Origin: Acidobacteria bacterium RIFCSPLOWO2_12_FULL_67_14b
Lineage (GTDB): Bacteria > Acidobacteriota > Vicinamibacteria > Vicinamibacterales > UBA2999
Assembly (NCBI GenBank): GCA_001768615.1
Contig: MELE01000027.1
Span: 52,778 to 116,777, forward strand
DNA: 64,000 nucleotides
Direction of reading: 5' to 3'
A model generated the notes under the pieces. That model was not told the DNA's origin. It was given only the letters and a program-made list of their open reading frames with translations, and made no database searches. Numbering within the stretch: position 1 is the first letter of the stretch; each line of letters begins with the position of its first letter. Below are positions 11,958 through 49,742 of the stretch, one piece after another. The position numbers were made by a program, and so were the translations under genes.

Positions 11958-14438
11958 CTAGCGTGGTGTGAGGGTCAGGGTTGACTCGGTGGGCCCGGGC
12001 AAGAACGGCGACGGCTCGCCGTTGAGCCACAGGCGGTACTGATCGTTGTAGTGCGGCGACAGGGGATGGCCGCTCTGGCCCGTCGGCACGTGCAGGATCC
12101 CATCCTCCTCGTGGCCCGGCGACACGGCCATGCGCTCCGATGGCCCGGCGCGTGGCGAGTGCGCGCGCGGGGTGTAGACGTCGCCCGGCAGCGGGTCCCC
12201 CGGCATGTTGAGGTAGCGGCCGAAGAACGGGATGCCCGACGCGAGCGGATGCCAGACCTGCGCGCGATTGAACTCGCCCCACGTGCGATCCGATAGCGCC
12301 GGTCCCGACTTGCGCAACTCGGCGATGGCTTCGTCGACCGCAGAGAGGATCAGTTCATCCCACGTCCTGAATTGCGGATCGAGCAGATGCGCGGGCCGCT
12401 CGGTCAGCAGCTGCCAGACCGGGCTCTCGCCGCGGAGCGATCGCGTGTAGTCGAACGACGGATCGATGCGGCGAGCGGGCGAGGTCAGCGTGGTCATCAC
12501 GCGAACCACGAGCGCGGTGCGGAACTGGCGCACCAGGCGATAGGCGACCGACCCCGGCGACGCGCGGCCGGTCCACGTCGTTTCGACGAGGCGGCGGAAT
12601 TCTTCTCGTTGGCGGGACTGAAGTCCCGCCTCTACGGCGCCCGGCTGGCGCAGCGCGTCGAGCACCAGCGTGCGCCAGCGATCGAGAAAGAGCGCGGTGT
12701 CTTCGAGCTGCACGTGCAGCATGTCCTGCGGCGTGGCCTTTACGATCGCCATCAGCCGATCGCGGATCAGGCGGGCGCGGATGCCGTCGGCGTATCCGCC
12801 CTCGCCGATCGTCGCGAGCAGGGCGCCGTCGACGACGGGGGCGTTGGCCGTCCAGATGCGGCCGCCGGCCGGATCGGCGATGCGCGGAAATTCCGCGGCG
12901 GGCAGGTAGCCGTCCCACCGGTGCGTGCCGTCGGCCCACGACGCCGGCGTCAGGCCGTCGTGTCCGACGCGCCGCGGGATGGCGCCGCCGATCGTCCACG
13001 CAATGCGGCCCGTGGTGTCGCCCATCGTGACGTTCTGATTGGGGATGCCGAGGCCGGCGACCGCGATCATCAACTCGTCGACGGTCCGGGCCCGTTCCGG
13101 CCTGGTGATGTCCGACGAGAGCGCGGCGGCGTCGTGCGCGATCCATCGCTGCGCGTACTCGCGGCCCTTCGCATCCTTCCAGACGATGGGGCCCCAGATG
13201 GTCCAGCGGACCTGGATGGTCTTCAAGTCCGCGCCCTTGGCCGCGAGGGTTTCGCGGTAGGTCTCGAACGGCTTCGCGCCGTCCGGCGTCAGGTACTGAG
13301 TCGCGTCGCGGGCGTCGGGATCGATCATCACGAGATCGCTCCAATCGCCGCCGCTGTTGGTGAAGCCCCACGCGACGTGGCCGTTGCTGCCGACGACCAT
13401 GCTCGGCAGGCCAGGGAGCGTCACGCCGTTGATGTGCTCGGTGGCCGCGGGCCCCGCGGGATCGGGAAACGCGAACGACGCGCGATACCAGATGGTCGGC
13501 ACGTTGATGGCCAGGTGCATGTCGTTGGCCACGAGCGCCGTTCCAGACGCCGAGTGCGCGGCATCGACGGCCCAGTTGTTGCTGCCGGCGATCAAATGCT
13601 CATCACGGAAACACTGAAACACCGAAGCAACGAACAAATCCTTTCCCAAAGGCTCGTTGCACGCGGCTTTGAGGAGAGGTTGTTCGGTGTTTCTGTGGTT
13701 CTGTGTTTCTGTGTGATGCATTTTTCGCAAATCGAATACGTCCGGCCCTGGTGTCGGCGGCCTGACGATCGCGGAGCCCACCACCGGCGTGTCCCACTCG
13801 GAGCCGGCCGTTGCCAGGAAGCGGAACATCGGCTCGGGCAGGCTGTCGCGCATGGCGCCCATCGTCTGCTCGAAGAGCCCCTGGCGCCCCTGCAGCGTGT
13901 TGAACATCGCGAGCACGGTGAGGATGGAATCTTCCGGCTTCCACGGCTCGGGCACGGCGCGCAGCACCAGGTACTCGAATGGCGCCGCGCCGAGCGCCGC
14001 GAGGCCGGTGTTGACGCCGGCGGCATAGGCCTCGAGCAGGCGCCGGTACGCCGGCTCGGTCTGTTCGAAGGCGCGATGCGCCACGTTACGGAAGCGATGC
14101 ACGCGCACGGCCTCGTCTGCTGCCAGCGCGCGGGGACCCACAAGACCCGACAACTCGCCGGCGGGCTGCCGCCGTTGCAGATCCATCTGGAAAAAACGGT
14201 CTTGCGCGTGGAGAAATCCCAACGCGCGGGCGACGTCCTCACGGGACTGCCCCGTGATGGTCGGCACACCGAGCGAGTCGCGATCCACTTTGACCGTGGC
14301 CGAAAGGCCAGGGACCCGGGAGGTGCCGTCGACCATCGGCAGGCTGGCGCGCACCTGCGATCGGGCGTAGACGCCGGCCATTACGATGAGGGCGCCGGCC
14401 ACGGCCAGCAGGACGATCACGTATCTCAGGATCCGCAC
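11958..14438 (-). CDS. penicillin acylase family protein (S45 Ntn hydrolase; AHL/penicillin/cephalosporin acylase-like)
   Basis: 826 aa. It carries the beta-subunit N-terminal nucleophile motif GSNNWAVDAAHSASGTALVANDMHL and an N-terminal TM/signal segment. GTG start. Confidence 0.9.
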   Translation of the reverse strand: MRILRYVIVLLAVAGALIVMAGVYARSQVRASLPMVDGTSRVPGLSATVKVDRDSLGVPTITGQSREDVARALGFLHAQDRFFQMDLQRRQPAGELSGLVGPRALAADEAVRVHRFRNVAHRAFEQTEPAYRRLLEAYAAGVNTGLAALGAAPFEYLVLRAVPEPWKPEDSILTVLAMFNTLQGRQGLFEQTMGAMRDSLPEPMFRFLATAGSEWDTPVVGSAIVRPPTPGPDVFDLRKMHHTETQNHRNTEQPLLKAACNEPLGKDLFVASVFQCFRDEHLIAGSNNWAVDAAHSASGTALVANDMHLAINVPTIWYRASFAFPDPAGPAATEHINGVTLPGLPSMVVGSNGHVAWGFTNSGGDWSDLVMIDPDARDATQYLTPDGAKPFETYRETLAAKGADLKTIQVRWTIWGPIVWKDAKGREYAQRWIAHDAAALSSDITRPERARTVDELMIAVAGLGIPNQNVTMGDTTGRIAWTIGGAIPRRVGHDGLTPASWADGTHRWDGYLPAAEFPRIADPAGGRIWTANAPVVDGALLATIGEGGYADGIRARLIRDRLMAIVKATPQDMLHVQLEDTALFLDRWRTLVLDALRQPGAVEAGLQSRQREEFRRLVETTWTGRASPGSVAYRLVRQFRTALVVRVMTTLTSPARRIDPSFDYTRSLRGESPVWQLLTERPAHLLDPQFRTWDELILSAVDEAIAELRKSGPALSDRTWGEFNRAQVWHPLASGIPFFGRYLNMPGDPLPGDVYTPRAHSPRAGPSERMAVSPGHEEDGILHVPTGQSGHPLSPHYNDQYRLWLNGEPSPFLPGPTESTLTLTPR
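13601..13718. repeat. CACAGAAAC-word hairpin element embedded in frame in the acylase CDS
   Basis: CATCACGGAAACACTGAAACACCGAAG...CGGTGTTTCTGTGGTTCTGTGTTTCTGTGTGATG. It is translated as MHHTETQNHRNTEQ...FVASVFQCFRDEH, just upstream of the SNNW processing site. A sibling copy lies at 26055..26163. Confidence 0.85.
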
Positions 14439-26054: not shown

Positions 26055-26163
26055 CATCACACGGAAACACAGAAACACAGAAACACTGAAAAGTCTTTTT
26101 TCAATGCCTCTGGCATTTCAAGAAGAGTCTCCGTGCTTCCGTGTTTCTGTGCTTCTGTGTATG
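26055..26163. repeat. CACAGAAAC-word hairpin element, intergenic copy
   Basis: CATCACACGGAAACACAGAAACACAGAAACACTGAAAAG, loop, then TCCGTGCTTCCGTGTTTCTGTGCTTCTGTGTATG. It lies between convergent genes. Confidence 0.9.
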
Positions 26164-36231: not shown

Positions 36232-36338
36232 GAGACCACGAAGTTCACGAAGATCATCACGAAGACCGCGAAGCGCCTCTTGCTCAAAATGCCTTCGTGA
36301 TCTTCGTGGTTGCCTTCGTGATCTTCGTGGTTTCTTCT
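36231..36338. repeat. ACCACGAAG-word hairpin element, copy 2
   Basis: AGAGACCACGAAGTTCACGAAGATCATCACGAAGACCGCGAAG, loop, then CCTTCGTGATCTTCGTGGTTGCCTTCGTGATCTTCGTGGTTTCTTCT. It lies between convergent genes and touches both stop codons. Confidence 0.9.
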
Positions 36339-38854: not shown

Positions 38855-40458
38855 GTCTTCAGCTCCGCGAGATCCTTGTCGGCCGAAGCCCAGCCCTTGA
38901 GGGCGAGGCCGAACTCGCGCTTCGCGGTGGCGGCGTTGCCGTCGTGCTCGGCGACCAGGGCCAGGGCGTAGTGCGTGCCGGCGTAGGCCGGGTCGTGTTC
39001 GAGCAGCAGCTGCGCCATCCGGCCCGCGAAGGTCCAGTCGCCGACGTCGCGCGCGGCGCGCGCCATCGCTTCCAGGCGGAACGTCGACTGGCTCCACGCA
39101 TCCGGCCCCGGCAGCGATCGCCATTTCTGCGCGGCGCGCTCCATGACCTGCCGGCCCTTCTCGCGCTGCGCGGTGCGCAGCAGGAACTCCCCCTGCAGCT
39201 GCTCGAGCGCGATCGCGGCCAGGCCTTGCCCGCCCTGCGCACTGCGCAGCGCTTTCAACGCCGCATTCGACGCGGCCGCCGCGTCACCGGGGCGCTTGGT
39301 GGCGAGCAGCGCAAAGCCGGCTTCGATGTGTCCCGTCGCCTGGACCACGAGGTTCGGATGCGCGACGAGGATCCTGGCCGCCGCGAGCGCTTCTTCGGGC
39401 CGGTTGCGCGCCAGCAGGAACATCGGCCACTCGCGCTTGTTCACCGCCTGCACCAGCAGGTTCGACGACAACGCGAACGACTGCTTCAGCAGCGGCTCCG
39501 CTTTCCGCACCTGTCCGACGTATTGATACGAGGCCGCAAGCAGGTCGAGATTGTGCTGGTGATGCCAGTCGAACTCGGCCGGGATTTTCTCGCTGCTGAA
39601 GTAGGCGCGCTGCAGGCGGTCGGCCGCCTCGAATTCGGCGATGGCGTCGGCGGGGCGGCCCGTCCGCCGCAGCTCGTGTCCGTGCATGTGTCGCGCATGC
39701 GGGATCGCCGGCGCCTGCGCCGCATACGCAGCCGCGTGCGCGAGCGCCTCGGCCATGCGTCCGCCGTTCTCGGCCGCGTGCGCCAGGTAATGCCGCGCCG
39801 CGAAATGGTCCGGCGCCACTTTCAACGCGCGCTCGTAAAACGGGATCGACGCCGCCACCGACCCCTGCCCGCGATCGGCGGGATCCGGCGAGGCCGCCAT
39901 GCCGCGCTTCAACAGCAGCTCGACGTCGGACGGGAATGCCACGAGCGCCGCATCCAGGGCCGCGCGATACGGGGGCAACTTGCTCGCGTCGCCGGGCGCG
40001 TCTTCGGCGGCCATCTGCAGCGCCCGCGCCTCGATGTGCCGCCGCTCATGATCCGACACCTTCGGTGCCATCGCCCGGGCGCGCTCGATCGCCCGCCGCG
40101 CATCCGCGGTCAGGTTCAGCTCGATGTAGGCGTAGCTCAGGCCGACGTCGGCGAGCGCGAGTCCCGGATCGATCCTGAGCGCCTGGTGAAACGATCGCGC
40201 CGCTTCGATCCAGACGAACGAATGCAGGTAGGACAGTCCCTGGTCGAAGAAGGCCTGCGCGTCGGCCGATGCCGTGGTGACCGTGTCGTGCGAGACGCCG
40301 ATGCCCGCGTGCACGGTGACGGGGCGCTCGAGCAGCTCTTGCGGAACGACGGGCAGGGTGTGTTGGGCGTGCTGCGCCCAGACAAGGCAGAAGGCAGAAG
40401 GCACAAGGCAGAAGTACGAGGACAAAAGGAAAAGGCAGAAGGAAGAAGAGCGCTTCAC
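38833..40458 (-). CDS. TPR repeat protein, probably secreted
   Basis: 541-aa ORF with a GTG start, a repeat-encoded signal-like N-terminus MKRSSSFCLFLLSSYFCLVPSAFCLVWA and multiple TPR-like helices. The last residues, TIADFGR, are encoded by the repeat arm. Confidence 0.75.
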   Translation of the reverse strand: MKRSSSFCLFLLSSYFCLVPSAFCLVWAQHAQHTLPVVPQELLERPVTVHAGIGVSHDTVTTASADAQAFFDQGLSYLHSFVWIEAARSFHQALRIDPGLALADVGLSYAYIELNLTADARRAIERARAMAPKVSDHERRHIEARALQMAAEDAPGDASKLPPYRAALDAALVAFPSDVELLLKRGMAASPDPADRGQGSVAASIPFYERALKVAPDHFAARHYLAHAAENGGRMAEALAHAAAYAAQAPAIPHARHMHGHELRRTGRPADAIAEFEAADRLQRAYFSSEKIPAEFDWHHQHNLDLLAASYQYVGQVRKAEPLLKQSFALSSNLLVQAVNKREWPMFLLARNRPEEALAAARILVAHPNLVVQATGHIEAGFALLATKRPGDAAAASNAALKALRSAQGGQGLAAIALEQLQGEFLLRTAQREKGRQVMERAAQKWRSLPGPDAWSQSTFRLEAMARAARDVGDWTFAGRMAQLLLEHDPAYAGTHYALALVAEHDGNAATAKREFGLALKGWASADKDLAELKTIADFGR

Positions 40459-40489
40459 AACGCCATTCTGCCTTCTGCCTTCTGCCTTG
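40383..40489. repeat. GGCAGAAGG-word hairpin: perfect 21-bp inverted repeat (40383..40403 and 40469..40489) with 65-nt loop
   Basis: CAAGGCAGAAGGCAGAAGGCA and its exact reverse complement were read directly. The loop contains more GGCAGAAG words and the GTG start at 40458. Confidence 0.9.
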
Positions 40490-44187: not shown

Positions 44188-44262
44188 GGGTGCCTGGGGT
44201 GCGTACGGTGACTAGGGTGCCTACGGGTTGGTGCCGGGTGCGGGTGCCGGTGCCGGTGCCGG
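44188..44262. repeat. GGGTGC/GGTGCCG word array
   Basis: gggtgcctggggtgcgtacggtgactagggtgcctacgggttggtgccgggtgcgggtgccggtgccggtgccggg lies in a divergent intergenic region. Confidence 0.8.
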
Positions 44263-46647: not shown

Positions 46648-47820
46648 ATGCGTTGGTTTGCCGGTGTCGGCGTGGCCGGATTGGCCGTGGCGGGAGCCGT
46701 GCTCCTCAGGCCGGCGACCGTCTACACGCATACCCCGATCACGACCAGCATCGTCTTTCAGAAGGAGATCGCGCAGATCTTCCAGCGCAAGTGCTTCCAG
46801 TGCCACACCGAGGGCAACATCTCGATGTCGCTCACCACCTACAAGGACGCGCGGCCGTGGGCGGTGGCGATCAAGGAAGAAATTCTCGAGCGCCGCATGC
46901 CGCCCTGGAGCGCGGTGAACGGCTACGGCCATTTCGCCAACGACATGAGCCTGACCGCGCGCGAGGTCAGCATCATCCTGGCGTGGGCCGATGGCGGCGC
47001 CCCGAGCGGCGTGCTGCTCGCCGACGAAAGCAAGCCGCCCGTGTTCGTGCCGCCGCTCGGCGGCTGGGACCAGGGCACACCCGACGTCCTGTTGACGGTG
47101 GCCTCGGATCAGAAAGTGGAAGCCGCGTCGCCCGATCGGACGGCGCGGTTCGAAGTGGCGACGGGCCTGGCGCAGGCGAAGTGGCTGCGCGCGCTGCAAC
47201 TCAACCCGGGCGATCGCCGCGCGGTCCGCTACGCCGCGATCTATGACGCCGCTTCGGGCCGCTGGCTCGGCACGTGGACGCCCGGTCACCTGAACACCAG
47301 CCTGCCCGACGGGGTCGGCATCCAGTTGCCCGCGAAGGGAAAGCTCGCCGTCGAGATCGGCTACCGCGGAACCGACGAGGCCGTGTCGGGCGAAGCCGAG
47401 CTCGGCCTGTACTTTTCGGAGAAGCGGCCGGCGCAGGTCGCGATGCCGCTCGAGATTGCCGCGGCGCCGGCGATCGTGCCCGCCGGCAGGACGCGCGAGA
47501 GGGTCCGCACTGAAACCGTGTTGAAGGCGCCGACCACCGCGTCGGCGCTGTGGCCCCGCCTCGGCGCGGGCGCCAAGTCGATCGAGGTCACGGCCATCCG
47601 TCCCAACGGCGTGGTCGAACCGTTGTTGTGGCTGAAGAACTACCGGCCTGACTGGCCCTCGTCGTATGTGTTCCGCGAGCCAATCACGCTGCCGGCAGGC
47701 ACGCGCCTGGTCATGACGGCGTACTACGACAACGCCACCGGAACCGCGCTCCAGGCGCGGCCCGCGGTGTCGGTTACCGCATTTCCGCCGTCTCGCCCGC
47801 CCGCAACACTCGCACCGTAA
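46648..47820 (+). CDS. CxxCH haem-binding (PSCyt1-like) domain protein
   Basis: N-terminal TM segment, then FQRKCFQCH...MPPW. The C-terminal beta-rich region ends ...AYYDN. Confidence 0.7.
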   Translation: MRWFAGVGVAGLAVAGAVLLRPATVYTHTPITTSIVFQKEIAQIFQRKCFQCHTEGNISMSLTTYKDARPWAVAIKEEILERRMPPWSAVNGYGHFANDMSLTAREVSIILAWADGGAPSGVLLADESKPPVFVPPLGGWDQGTPDVLLTVASDQKVEAASPDRTARFEVATGLAQAKWLRALQLNPGDRRAVRYAAIYDAASGRWLGTWTPGHLNTSLPDGVGIQLPAKGKLAVEIGYRGTDEAVSGEAELGLYFSEKRPAQVAMPLEIAAAPAIVPAGRTRERVRTETVLKAPTTASALWPRLGAGAKSIEVTAIRPNGVVEPLLWLKNYRPDWPSSYVFREPITLPAGTRLVMTAYYDNATGTALQARPAVSVTAFPPSRPPATLAP

Positions 47821-48733
47821 ACGGCACCGTCGACAGGTGGTTGTTCCTCTGGAACTGCAGCCAGATGCGGTAGTGGCCCGGCTTGGGGAACAGGGCGTGG
47901 AAGACCAGGTCCGGCCCGCCGCCCCCGGTGATCGTCGTGCCCTCGAGCATCTCCTCGGGATGGGCGTGCACGTGCTCCATCATGTCTTCGCTGAGCATCA
48001 TCGCGTGCCCGAATGCGCCGAGGTAGCGCTGCAGGTTGGTCACCGGCTGCTCGGTCTTCTCGTCGGTGAAGCGGATCGGCACGTCGAGATCTTCACCGGC
48101 GACGAGCTTCGCGGGCTCGATTCGCAGATCGATCGTCACGCCGTCGGCATGCTTCACCCACGACCCATCCGGCACGAGGTTCGCCGCGTCGGACGCGATG
48201 TCGCCTTCGTAGCCTGCCGTGACGAGCGGCGTCGTGATCAGCTGCGGGCTGCCGCCAAGCGGCATGAAGTCGCTGAAGAGCACATAGTGGCCCGGCTTGG
48301 GCAACGTGTGCTCGATGGTGAACGAGCCGTCCGCCTCGAACACCGGATGCTCGTGATTGAAGAGCGTCAGGTCGCGGCTGATGATGAAGAGGTGGAACAG
48401 CCGGTCGTGCACGTCGGCAAACCGGTTCACCTTCGCGCCGGTCAACGGATGGGTGACGGTGAACCGGAACTTCGTCGGCTGCCCGGCTTTCACGACGCGC
48501 GGCTCGGCGACGACGCTCAGGCGGTAGTCGGCGGTGGCCATCGGGTCGCCGGGCACGAGCGTCATGCCGCAGATGCTGCAGGTGCCGGGCTCGGCCTTCA
48601 CCTCGTTCGGATGCATCGGGCAGATGTAGCCGCTGGTGGTGGCTGGCTTATTCGGGTCGACGATGGGCCGCGCGGTGCCGGGGATCAGCTCCTGGACCGC
48701 CAGCACGACCGCCAAGGCCAGAACGAGCTTCAT
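47774..48733 (-). CDS. heavy-metal-binding domain (HMBD, CPMHP motif) protein with two His/Met-rich Ig-like modules
   Basis: YICPMHPNEVKAEPGTCSICGMTLVP, then two repeats of the pattern H..F..S.D...F.HEHP...PKPGHY. MMLSEDMMEHVHAHPEEM is also present. Confidence 0.8.
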   Translation of the reverse strand: MKLVLALAVVLAVQELIPGTARPIVDPNKPATTSGYICPMHPNEVKAEPGTCSICGMTLVPGDPMATADYRLSVVAEPRVVKAGQPTKFRFTVTHPLTGAKVNRFADVHDRLFHLFIISRDLTLFNHEHPVFEADGSFTIEHTLPKPGHYVLFSDFMPLGGSPQLITTPLVTAGYEGDIASDAANLVPDGSWVKHADGVTIDLRIEPAKLVAGEDLDVPIRFTDEKTEQPVTNLQRYLGAFGHAMMLSEDMMEHVHAHPEEMLEGTTITGGGGPDLVFHALFPKPGHYRIWLQFQRNNHLSTVPFTVRVLRAGETAEMR

Positions 48734-48749
48734 CTCTCTATTCTATAAG

Positions 48750-48879
48750 GGTGCTTGGGTGCTTGGGTGCGTGGGTGCTTATGTGCGCACCTACGCACCT
48801 ACGCACCTACGCACCTACGCACCTACGCACCTACGCACCTATGCACCCACGCACCCACGCACCCACGCACCCACGCACC
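48750..48879. repeat. about 16 consecutive 8-nt units: GGTGCTTG-type x4, CTACGCAC x6 (perfect), CTATGCAC, CCACGCAC x4
   Basis: Read directly. The left units are the reverse complement of the right units. G3N5 x4 motifs occur on the + strand (48749..48775) and on the - strand (48846..48872). Confidence 0.9.
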
Positions 48880-48887
48880 TTGTTCTT

Positions 48888-49442
48888 TCAGGGCCAGAGC
48901 CAGCCGAAGGTGCCGCCGGTGAGGAGGCCGTAGAGCAGGCCATCGAGCATGCCGCGCATGGTCGTGCCCCAGTTCTTGCCGCCCCAGATCGAGGACTGGG
49001 GCAGGCCCAGCGCGTAGCCGGTGAACGCCACGCAGCCGGCGACCTGGAACACCCTCAGGTACTCGGTGCCGGGGCCGAAGGCCACGCCGGCAATGTAGCC
49101 GGCGACCAGCGAGATCACGATGGAGTAGAGGAACCACTGAACCAGGTTCGTGGCCATGTTGTACTCACCCGGCCTCACGGTCATGAAGACCACCGGCCCG
49201 GCCTTCATCTTCGCCTGGAACTCCGGTGACTTCATCGCGTCCATCGACTGCGCGAGCGGCATGCCGTAATCACCGGGCGCGAGGTTGAACGGCCGCAGCG
49301 CGGCCATCACGCCATCCTCGTTTGGTACCCTCTTGAAGTCATTCTTGTGGAACTTGGTGAACATGTGGATGGCCGAGCTGGCCACAAACACGATCACCGC
49401 GGAGAGGAGAATCGGGAGCCACAACGACAGCACTGGGACCAT
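48888..49442 (-). CDS. hypothetical integral membrane protein
   Basis: 184 aa, about 4 TM segments. GGAGG lies 5 nt upstream of the ATG. It is downstream of the ECF sigma/anti-sigma genes. Confidence 0.7.
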   Translation of the reverse strand: MVPVLSLWLPILLSAVIVFVASSAIHMFTKFHKNDFKRVPNEDGVMAALRPFNLAPGDYGMPLAQSMDAMKSPEFQAKMKAGPVVFMTVRPGEYNMATNLVQWFLYSIVISLVAGYIAGVAFGPGTEYLRVFQVAGCVAFTGYALGLPQSSIWGGKNWGTTMRGMLDGLLYGLLTGGTFGWLWP

Positions 49443-49496
49443 CAGAGCCTCCAGCCGCGCATGCTAGTCGATCGCGAGGCGGCCTGTATAGCCGGC

Positions 49497-49742
49497 CTAC
49501 AGGATCCCGCGCAACCGGAGCGCGTCGTGCACGACGGCGGAGAAGTAGAGCAGGCACAGCCCGCCGATCACGGCCTGTCCGAGGATGAAAGCCGCCGACC
49601 GTATCGCGGCACCGGCGCAATCGGGCCGCCGGCGCGCGAGCCTGGCATGGCAGCGCGCGCGCACTTGCGCCGCACGCGAGTGGTCGGGCGTCATGAGCGG
49701 CAGCGCGCGCAGCGCCGGATCATGGGCTTCGTCGGTGATCAT
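49497..49742 (-). CDS. putative anti-sigma factor (small, single TM)
   Basis: ATGA overlap with the ECF sigma gene. It has a C-terminal hydrophobic segment AAFILGQAVIGGLCLLYFSAVV. Confidence 0.55.
   Translation of the reverse strand: MITDEAHDPALRALPLMTPDHSRAAQVRARCHARLARRRPDCAGAAIRSAAFILGQAVIGGLCLLYFSAVVHDALRLRGIL

Follow-up and report, generated by a model that had tools for sequence, protein, structure and literature searches.

The array studied here lies between two minus-strand genes in a window (the whole stretch of DNA that was analysed) of 64,000 nt, taken from a MAG of 258 contigs (5.3 Mb, 67% GC). The downstream gene (47774..48733) encodes a secreted protein with a heavy-metal-binding domain (HMBD; PF19335, E = 3e-12). 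The upstream gene (48888..49442), the syntenic partner of the HMBD gene, encodes a 184-aa membrane protein that matched no Pfam or NCBIfam family, and NCBIfam likewise gave no family for either of the flanking proteins. In the gap, at 48749-48880, about 16 units of 8 nt follow each other head-to-tail, first four GGGTGCKT and then 11-12 units of the reverse complement. TRF resolves them into a short arm of GGGTGCTT/GGGTGCGT at 48749..48780 (plus strand; period 8, 4.0 copies, 91% matches) and a long arm of CGCACCTA/CGCACCCA at 48786..48880 (plus strand; 11.9 copies, score 155, 95% matches). Between them the degenerate unit ATGTGCG (48781..48787) marks the turn of the palindrome, where G-type units change to C-type, and sits at the apex of the predicted hairpins. 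By direct reading the right block consists of CTACGCAC six times without error, CTATGCAC once and CCACGCAC four times. This agrees exactly, in TRF and in the letters, with the series of about 16 units described in an earlier sequence-only reading. The assembled count of 4 + 12 units comes from a short-read MAG and is uncertain, since such arrays break short-read assemblies. Seven contig ends in the source genome stop at 7/8-nt arrays.

The short arm is G-rich on the plus strand, antisense to both flanking genes, and in the sense direction (minus strand) the upstream gene's stop codon is followed directly by the long arm, which there reads as 12 GGTGCGTR units. GGGTGCKT itself occurs four times on the plus strand, and four times on the minus strand together with seven GG-only units. 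Inverted-repeat arms of 39 nt each (48749-48787 and 48834-48872) are 90% complementary, and as single-stranded DNA the array folds at -49.8 kcal/mol, where shuffled sequences reach -25.6 +/- 3 (z = -8.1), so the proposal that its reverse-complement halves are able to form a hairpin or cruciform was well founded. The array is far outside chance expectation from dinucleotide shuffles: the window holds 12 period-7/8 arrays with a maximum score of 155, and 20 dinucleotide shuffles gave 0-1 arrays with a maximum of 43. Other window arrays of the same class, palindromic or direct, lie at 40384-40488 (AAGGCAG nine times with CTGCCTT three times), 36233-36332 (CACGAAG with CTTCGTG), 13604-13714 (CACNGAAA with TTTCTGTG) and 44188-44262 (GGGTGCCTA/GGTGCC). 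The array had been called the most expanded of the GGTGC type. It is indeed the largest of that type in the window and the genome's top-scoring 8-mer array, but six further GGTGC arrays in the genome come close to it with about 10-11 units each. No Rfam match was found in the entire window at the gathering threshold.

The place of the array relative to the two genes proved to be as first described. It begins 7 nt beyond the stop codon of the upstream gene (48888-48890) and ends 15 nt from the HMBD ATG (48733), with the short arm abutting a -10-like box, TAGAAT (48740..48745, minus strand), that lies 3 nt beyond the array end and 6 nt upstream of the ATG. Of 83 distinct sequences upstream of orthologues, 65 have the pattern TAnnnT at offset -12 from the ATG and no more than 6 have it at any other single offset, with the orthologue starts picked independently of the motif. 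Position -14 is often a G in these sequences, as in an extended -10 element. Across the genome 173 genes have TAnnnT at -12, compared with about 20 in the background, a sharp peak that indicates a sizeable class of putatively leaderless genes in this Vicinamibacterales MAG. The Shine-Dalgarno peak of the same genome is normal and lies at -11 to -10. In the literature TAnnnT at this offset marks leaderless genes, whose share was estimated at 10-19% of genes in three Acidobacteria (Zheng 2011, PMC3160421). By this signature the HMBD gene is probably transcribed from a promoter of its own, with the TAGAAT box, into a leaderless mRNA that starts downstream of the array. The array would then not be part of the HMBD 5'UTR, because that mRNA probably lacks one and starts further downstream. 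Earlier it had been supposed that the minus-strand G-rich motif would be carried in the HMBD mRNA or 5'UTR, and the conserved box speaks against this by implying a start past the array. Lying between the stop codon and the -10 element, the array would instead be transcribed with the upstream gene, at the 3' end of its RNA. A scan of 48300-49700 with consensus promoter and terminator models returned no sites.

The same gene gap in relatives

Of 24 genomes from the same genus, 22 have an HMBD orthologue. Synteny of the gene pair holds in most of the 24 and in many metagenome contigs, and the gap was compared in 61 loci where both genes were found. About 20 of the 61 have a gap of only 9 nt. In a tree of 48 rows (a quick ML tree of both proteins, with SH-aLRT support only) 19 rows are compact (9-16 nt) and the remainder carry at least five unrelated unit types; the tree calls for 22 changes in the state of the gap, and sister sequences often differ in it, for example by a hairpin of 104 nt on one side and a 9-nt gap on the other. 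The units of the gap hairpins comprise AATAAC-type 7-mers, CGTTC/GAACG 8-12-mers, CACAGAG-type units and GGTGC-type 8-9-mers. Some gaps hold plain long palindromes and others direct arrays, of which one runs to more than 30 units across an assembly gap. In that locus a run of N breaks a direct GGTGCTSR array. At 82-86% protein identity, the closest relatives have AT-rich arrays or a plain palindrome in place of GGTGC units, and scans of metagenomes and of the genome collection found no contig closer than 86% protein identity. In some loci the membrane-protein gene is absent and similar hairpins still stand directly upstream of the HMBD -10 box. Seven loci come from MAGs titled Acidimicrobiia or Cyanobacteriota despite close acidobacterial orthologues, and these are probably mislabelled bins. 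A sigma-54 or ECF-type promoter reading of the GGCAC and GAAC units was rejected on spacing and consensus mismatch.

In the 9-nt gaps (about 20 loci) the upstream TAA or TAG stop codon forms the first half of TAnnnT, and all boxes that overlap the stop codon in this manner end in T. In the hairpin-bearing gaps a separate stop and a separate box flank the hairpin, and TGA stops then occur.

Unit number could be compared at the orthologous locus in four close pairs of relatives (98.6-99.9% gene nucleotide identity). Two pairs have identical arrays and the two others, both of GGTGC type, are one unit apart. Unit number drifts slowly, not at the speed of a contingency locus. The array had been described as prone to slippage and plausibly phase-variable, and the one-unit differences agree with the first half of that description; the second half falters on position, the array lying upstream of the -10 box and in no switching position. 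A contingency locus, in which frequent gain and loss of 8-nt units would switch HMBD expression on and off, finds some encouragement in the six perfect tandem units and in the two pairs that differ by one. We nevertheless hold it to be exceedingly unlikely: the array lies neither between -35 and -10 nor in an ORF, the other two close pairs are identical, and arrays of this class stand beside all kinds of genes. Moreover, the gain or loss of a unit leaves the -35 region and the bases by the -10 box unchanged because the array sequence is periodic.

Arrays and hairpin families across the genome

A TRF run on the whole genome yielded 489 period-7 and 119 period-8 arrays (608 in total), and these are the genome's two over-represented non-triplet periods. 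About 70% of the arrays are intergenic, against 19% expected from the intergenic share of the genome. They fall into some 120 unit types, most without a G3 tract, and the top three types account for about 35% of the arrays. For about 31%, two or more tandem units of the reverse complement lie no more than 250 nt away, compared with 2.5% for shuffled units, and palindromic pairs are on this account a regular form of the arrays in this genome; for the other 70% or so no inverted partner was detected. With gene calls that are GC3/codon-based and start sites that are approximate, the median distance is 8 nt from stop to array and 24.5 nt from array to start, and arrays nearer to a stop outnumber those nearer to a start by 164 to 94. 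Their density is 0.52 per kb in convergent and 0.28 per kb in divergent gaps, the divergent frequency being about half that in convergent or co-directional gaps. In co-directional array-bearing gaps the sense fold is more stable than the antisense fold in 89 cases against 66 (p = 0.006), and the hairpin-paired subset of these gaps shows no such bias. The comparison of fold energies is weak evidence for selection at the RNA level and agrees with an RNA role as well as with no role.

The preference for stops, the excess in convergent gaps, the very stable stem and the slight bias of stability to the sense strand would all suit a selected terminator or insulator, a hairpin fixed because it keeps transcription of the membrane-protein gene from running on into the HMBD promoter. 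However, the stem is followed by TTATAGAAT, with no U-tract, and is for this reason not a canonical intrinsic terminator. Many relatives make do without a hairpin, with a 9-nt gap and a stop codon that doubles as -10 box, and 130 nt far exceeds what a terminator requires. Selection for termination or insulation is in our judgement very unlikely to account for the array.

The GGTGC-type arrays form a family with rules of its own. Runs of GTGC or GCAC at 8-nt spacing occur at about 150 sites in the genome, and in all 21 hairpins built from them with arms less than 250 nt apart the G arm comes first (examples at C95:24100-24247, C179:13617-13728 and C251:25943-26134). This polarity is identical when read from either strand, which is why a G4 motif appears on both strands of the studied array. 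Outer ends reading ...GTACGCACCTTG are common to many hairpins of the type (more than 10 displayed copies), and the outer end of the studied array on the stop-codon side, ...ACGCACCTTG, is the end common to the family. The 11-mer AAGGTGCGTAC has 20 occurrences in the genome, where shuffled words have 0-1. No inward-facing pair with two exact copies of the 9-mer terminus turned up in a search, because each copy has slightly different ends. Other unit families have a fixed polarity too, with AAGGCAG first, CACAGAAA first, CCGGGCT first and TCAGCCT first. A universal rule of a purine-rich arm first, across all unit families, proved weak (48 versus 28) and was dropped, polarity being fixed within families only. 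CACAGARA-type inverted arrays were seen in two genomes, at 26059-26159 of the window and in the gap upstream of one HMBD orthologue, and both enclose a similar small central hairpin (AATGCC...GGCATTTC), a hint that hairpins of this family have a conserved core.

The array is a many-copy, dispersed palindromic element with common termini at unlinked intergenic sites, of a REP/MITE-like kind. At the junctions of the studied locus no clear target duplication was seen. One could suppose that the array arose locally, a chance seed having been extended by replication slippage and template switching, and that it has neither kin loci nor function. Single-unit indels between close relatives, rapid turnover at the locus, six perfect units suggestive of recent expansion, and the wide ascription of heptamer-class repeats to polymerase slippage (work of Mrazek and co-workers, summarised in PMC4679880) are consistent with such an origin. 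Yet independent growth predicts random polarity and random ends, and about 20 unlinked copies have common outer termini and a fixed G-first polarity; furthermore a few unit families dominate the genome, and the same arms bracket four-helix-bundle genes (see below). We consider growth in place unlikely. Shared ends and fixed polarity, unlike independent local slippage, suggest the copying or movement of whole modules.

The four-helix-bundle genes are those of PF05635, the 23S rRNA intervening-sequence protein, with 13 matches in the genome. Inverted reverse-complement arrays stand on both sides of 8 of the 13, compared with 21 of 5000 random segments. One such cassette (C139:20364-21095) has GGGTGCTC/GGGTGCGT x10.6 on one side of its PF05635 gene and AAGCACCC x6.6 on the other, and these arms are the unit types of the studied array. 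In the latter the arms abut and no ORF lies in the loop, so it is not a PF05635 gene-enclosing cassette. It resembles the arms of these cassettes minus the insert and is at most an empty relative of them. Our literature searches turned up no publication that deals with these repeats in Acidobacteria or that ties four-helix-bundle genes to tandem-repeat stems.

Hairpin versus G-quadruplex

Each strand of the array carries exactly one motif of the form (G3+N1-7)x4 by regular expression, a canonical G3N5G3N5G3N5G3 at 48749..48775 on the plus strand and at 48846..48872 on the minus strand, as had been pointed out from the sequence. On these motifs a structural switch had been built in which a G4 on either strand would compete with the hairpin and tune HMBD transcription or translation. 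Besides the motifs themselves, this proposal can draw on the fact that the plus-strand motif overlies the -35 region of the putative HMBD promoter and that the related G-rich repeats of Xanthomonas and Nostoc form G4 in vitro and have the same positional bias. It also gains from the strand preference of the G3-unit arrays before starts, which have their G on the non-coding strand in 18 cases against 7 (p = 0.04), although those after stops have no strand bias (16 versus 15). G4Hunter scoring, which had been put forward as a check, did return both motifs, with a maximum of 1.24 for the plus strand and -1.32 for the minus strand, but these values are marginal and lie at the lenient threshold.

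Folding models argue for the hairpin. We calculated the cost of the G4 state under equilibrium folding by forcing the motif to be single-stranded and adding a G4 term. For the sense (minus) RNA the hairpin has an MFE of -91.6 kcal/mol and the G4 state costs +31; the corresponding values are -73.1 and +52 for the antisense RNA, -49.8 and +11 for the sense single-strand DNA, and -43.2 and +30 for the antisense single-strand DNA. The models thus favour the hairpin over G4 by 11-52 kcal/mol. Allowing G-quadruplexes in the gquad model of ViennaRNA left the minimum-energy structure unchanged, and in that model an isolated G4 motif is worth about -5 kcal/mol (-5.2) versus -92 for the hairpin. In the predicted sense RNA fold the surplus G/U-rich units also pair mutually via G-U wobble. 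A kinetic, co-transcriptional G4 may form in the G arm that is made first.

Comparison across arrays and across relatives points in the same direction. Arrays with a GGG/CCC unit and arrays without one have the same copy-number distribution (mode 4, medians 4.4 and 4.7), and the argument that four units are kept for a G4 thus finds no support. Among the orthologous gaps only that of the window has a G4 motif: none was found in the 60 others, those built of GGTGC units included. With the HMBD gene probably leaderless, which would leave the motif outside a 5'UTR, we regard a switch between G4 and hairpin as very improbable, and the gene-specific form in which it had been proposed finds no support in the 60 gaps or in the folding energies. 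The genome has 342 G4 motifs, about 3 times the Markov expectation, of which 155 lie inside arrays. G4-motif scans in such genomes would therefore mostly pick up arrays, and caution is in order for scans of array-rich genomes.

A dispersed hairpin family and its known counterparts

The array is one ordinary member of a functionally unexplained class of hairpin repeats, and its reading as a G4 switch is unsupported. Our results are best accounted for, and probably explained, by a gene-less copy of a dispersed intergenic hairpin family that would act as a 3' stem-loop of the upstream transcript and in which the G4 motifs would be a by-product. The stems of such hairpin modules are mirror-image runs of 7-9-nt units with the G-rich arm always 5' on either strand, and the copy studied here fills all the free DNA from the membrane-protein stop to the -10-like box by the HMBD start, a place where relatives have the two genes abutting or unrelated hairpins in the same gap. 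Unit number shifts through single-unit slippage. The TAGAAT box would be the promoter of a leaderless HMBD mRNA, and the array, transcribed at the 3' end of the upstream gene's RNA, would form a stem-loop with a folding energy of about -90 kcal/mol. Such a stem-loop may serve in stabilising the 3' end, in pausing, or in RNase III-type processing, the last proposed by analogy with IVS stems, and would separate two genes rather than tune the HMBD gene. The two G4 motifs would follow from a GGG-containing unit being placed in a palindrome and would not represent a selected switch. It is quite possible that the array is largely neutral or selfish, given the missing U-tract and the weak evidence for selection at the RNA level.

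A possible but doubtful alternative is a mobile, IVS-like module, with the array as an empty copy. In its full form such a module would have a four-helix-bundle gene in the loop, and it would insert between stop and -10 box and split operons. The G-rich strand would always point to the centre of the palindrome, and this fixed polarity would reflect the mechanism of copying or insertion. Insertion would be precise, the downstream gene being leaderless and the module landing between its -10 box and the preceding stop codon, and the long stem on the RNA would be cut in an RNase III-like manner, making the module a movable punctuation mark that splits operons.

Considered as an intergenic hairpin copy at the end of the upstream transcript, the locus is ordinary and has no need of a story of G-quadruplex regulation. 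Its value is that of a clean natural series, in which the same gene pair in dozens of Vicinamibacterales genomes displays three states of the gap: a 9-nt gap with the stop serving as -10 box, hairpins of at least five unrelated units, and direct arrays of more than 30 units. Three states in one gene pair make a convenient test bed for the palindromes of the heptamer class, for which the Xanthomonas and Nostoc work raises the question of whether they terminate, get processed or do nothing, and of how they arise. The interest of the locus rests mainly on this comparative series and on the regularities of polarity and shared ends.

Several known systems resemble the array in part. Like REP/BIME elements and MITEs, the hairpin arrays here are dispersed, hairpin-forming intergenic elements with common ends that lie just after stops and whose presence varies among related genomes; unlike them, their stems are internally tandem-repetitive with a variable number of units. 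The intervening sequences of 23S rRNA, with their S23p/PF05635 four-helix-bundle ORF, for example in Coxiella burnetii (PMC4990558), have a long stem around a small four-helix-bundle gene, as do the 8 of 13 such genes bracketed by inverted arrays here. The studied array differs in having no gene in the loop and in lying outside an rRNA gene, and RNase III processing would apply to it by analogy. Long SSRs with units of 5-11 nt, dominated by heptamers, were described by Mrazek and co-workers (work summarised in PMC4679880 and PMC4692102), and further cases of the heptamer class are the STRR repeats of Calothrix and Nostoc and the TAACTGA repeats of Beggiatoaceae (PMC4679880). The arrays share with the heptamer class their intergenic position near gene ends, their abundance in scattered lineages, the want of a functional explanation and slippage as the proposed source. 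The TAACTGA repeats differ in being direct and just upstream of start codons, with 1 inverted in 170, whereas about one third of the arrays here form palindromic pairs.

The closest parallel is with the G-rich heptamer repeats of Rehm et al. 2015 (PMC4692102), GGGAATC in Xanthomonas and GGGGAYT in Nostoc, which are enriched in intergenic regions, have their G-rich strand coding after stops and non-coding before starts, and differ in repeat length between related species; a link to surface genes was not found in them. Xanthomonas genomes hold 70-75 convergent inverted pairs each, and competition between stem-loop and G4 is explicitly mentioned in that work. As in these repeats, the array has tandem units of 7-9 nt with a G3 tract, a genome-wide spread, an intergenic position and the same strand rule, the G-rich strand at our locus being coding after the stop and non-coding before the start. 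Of the marks of a G4-prone, G-rich intergenic SSR, the locus displays at least four G3 units, over-representation in the genome, the strand rule within 50 nt of a stop and of a start, and convergent pairs. It differs in having a unit of 8 nt (GGGTGCKT), an acidobacterial host and G4 that is predicted only. In place of one dominant unit, the genome studied here has about 120 unit types, most of them without G3, and the arms of the array, of 4 and 12 units, differ greatly in length and have no spacer between them. The competition of hairpin and G4 in inverted G-rich repeats is thus already published for a sister class of repeats, in Xanthomonas (Rehm 2015), to which the array adds an octamer counterpart from Vicinamibacterales.
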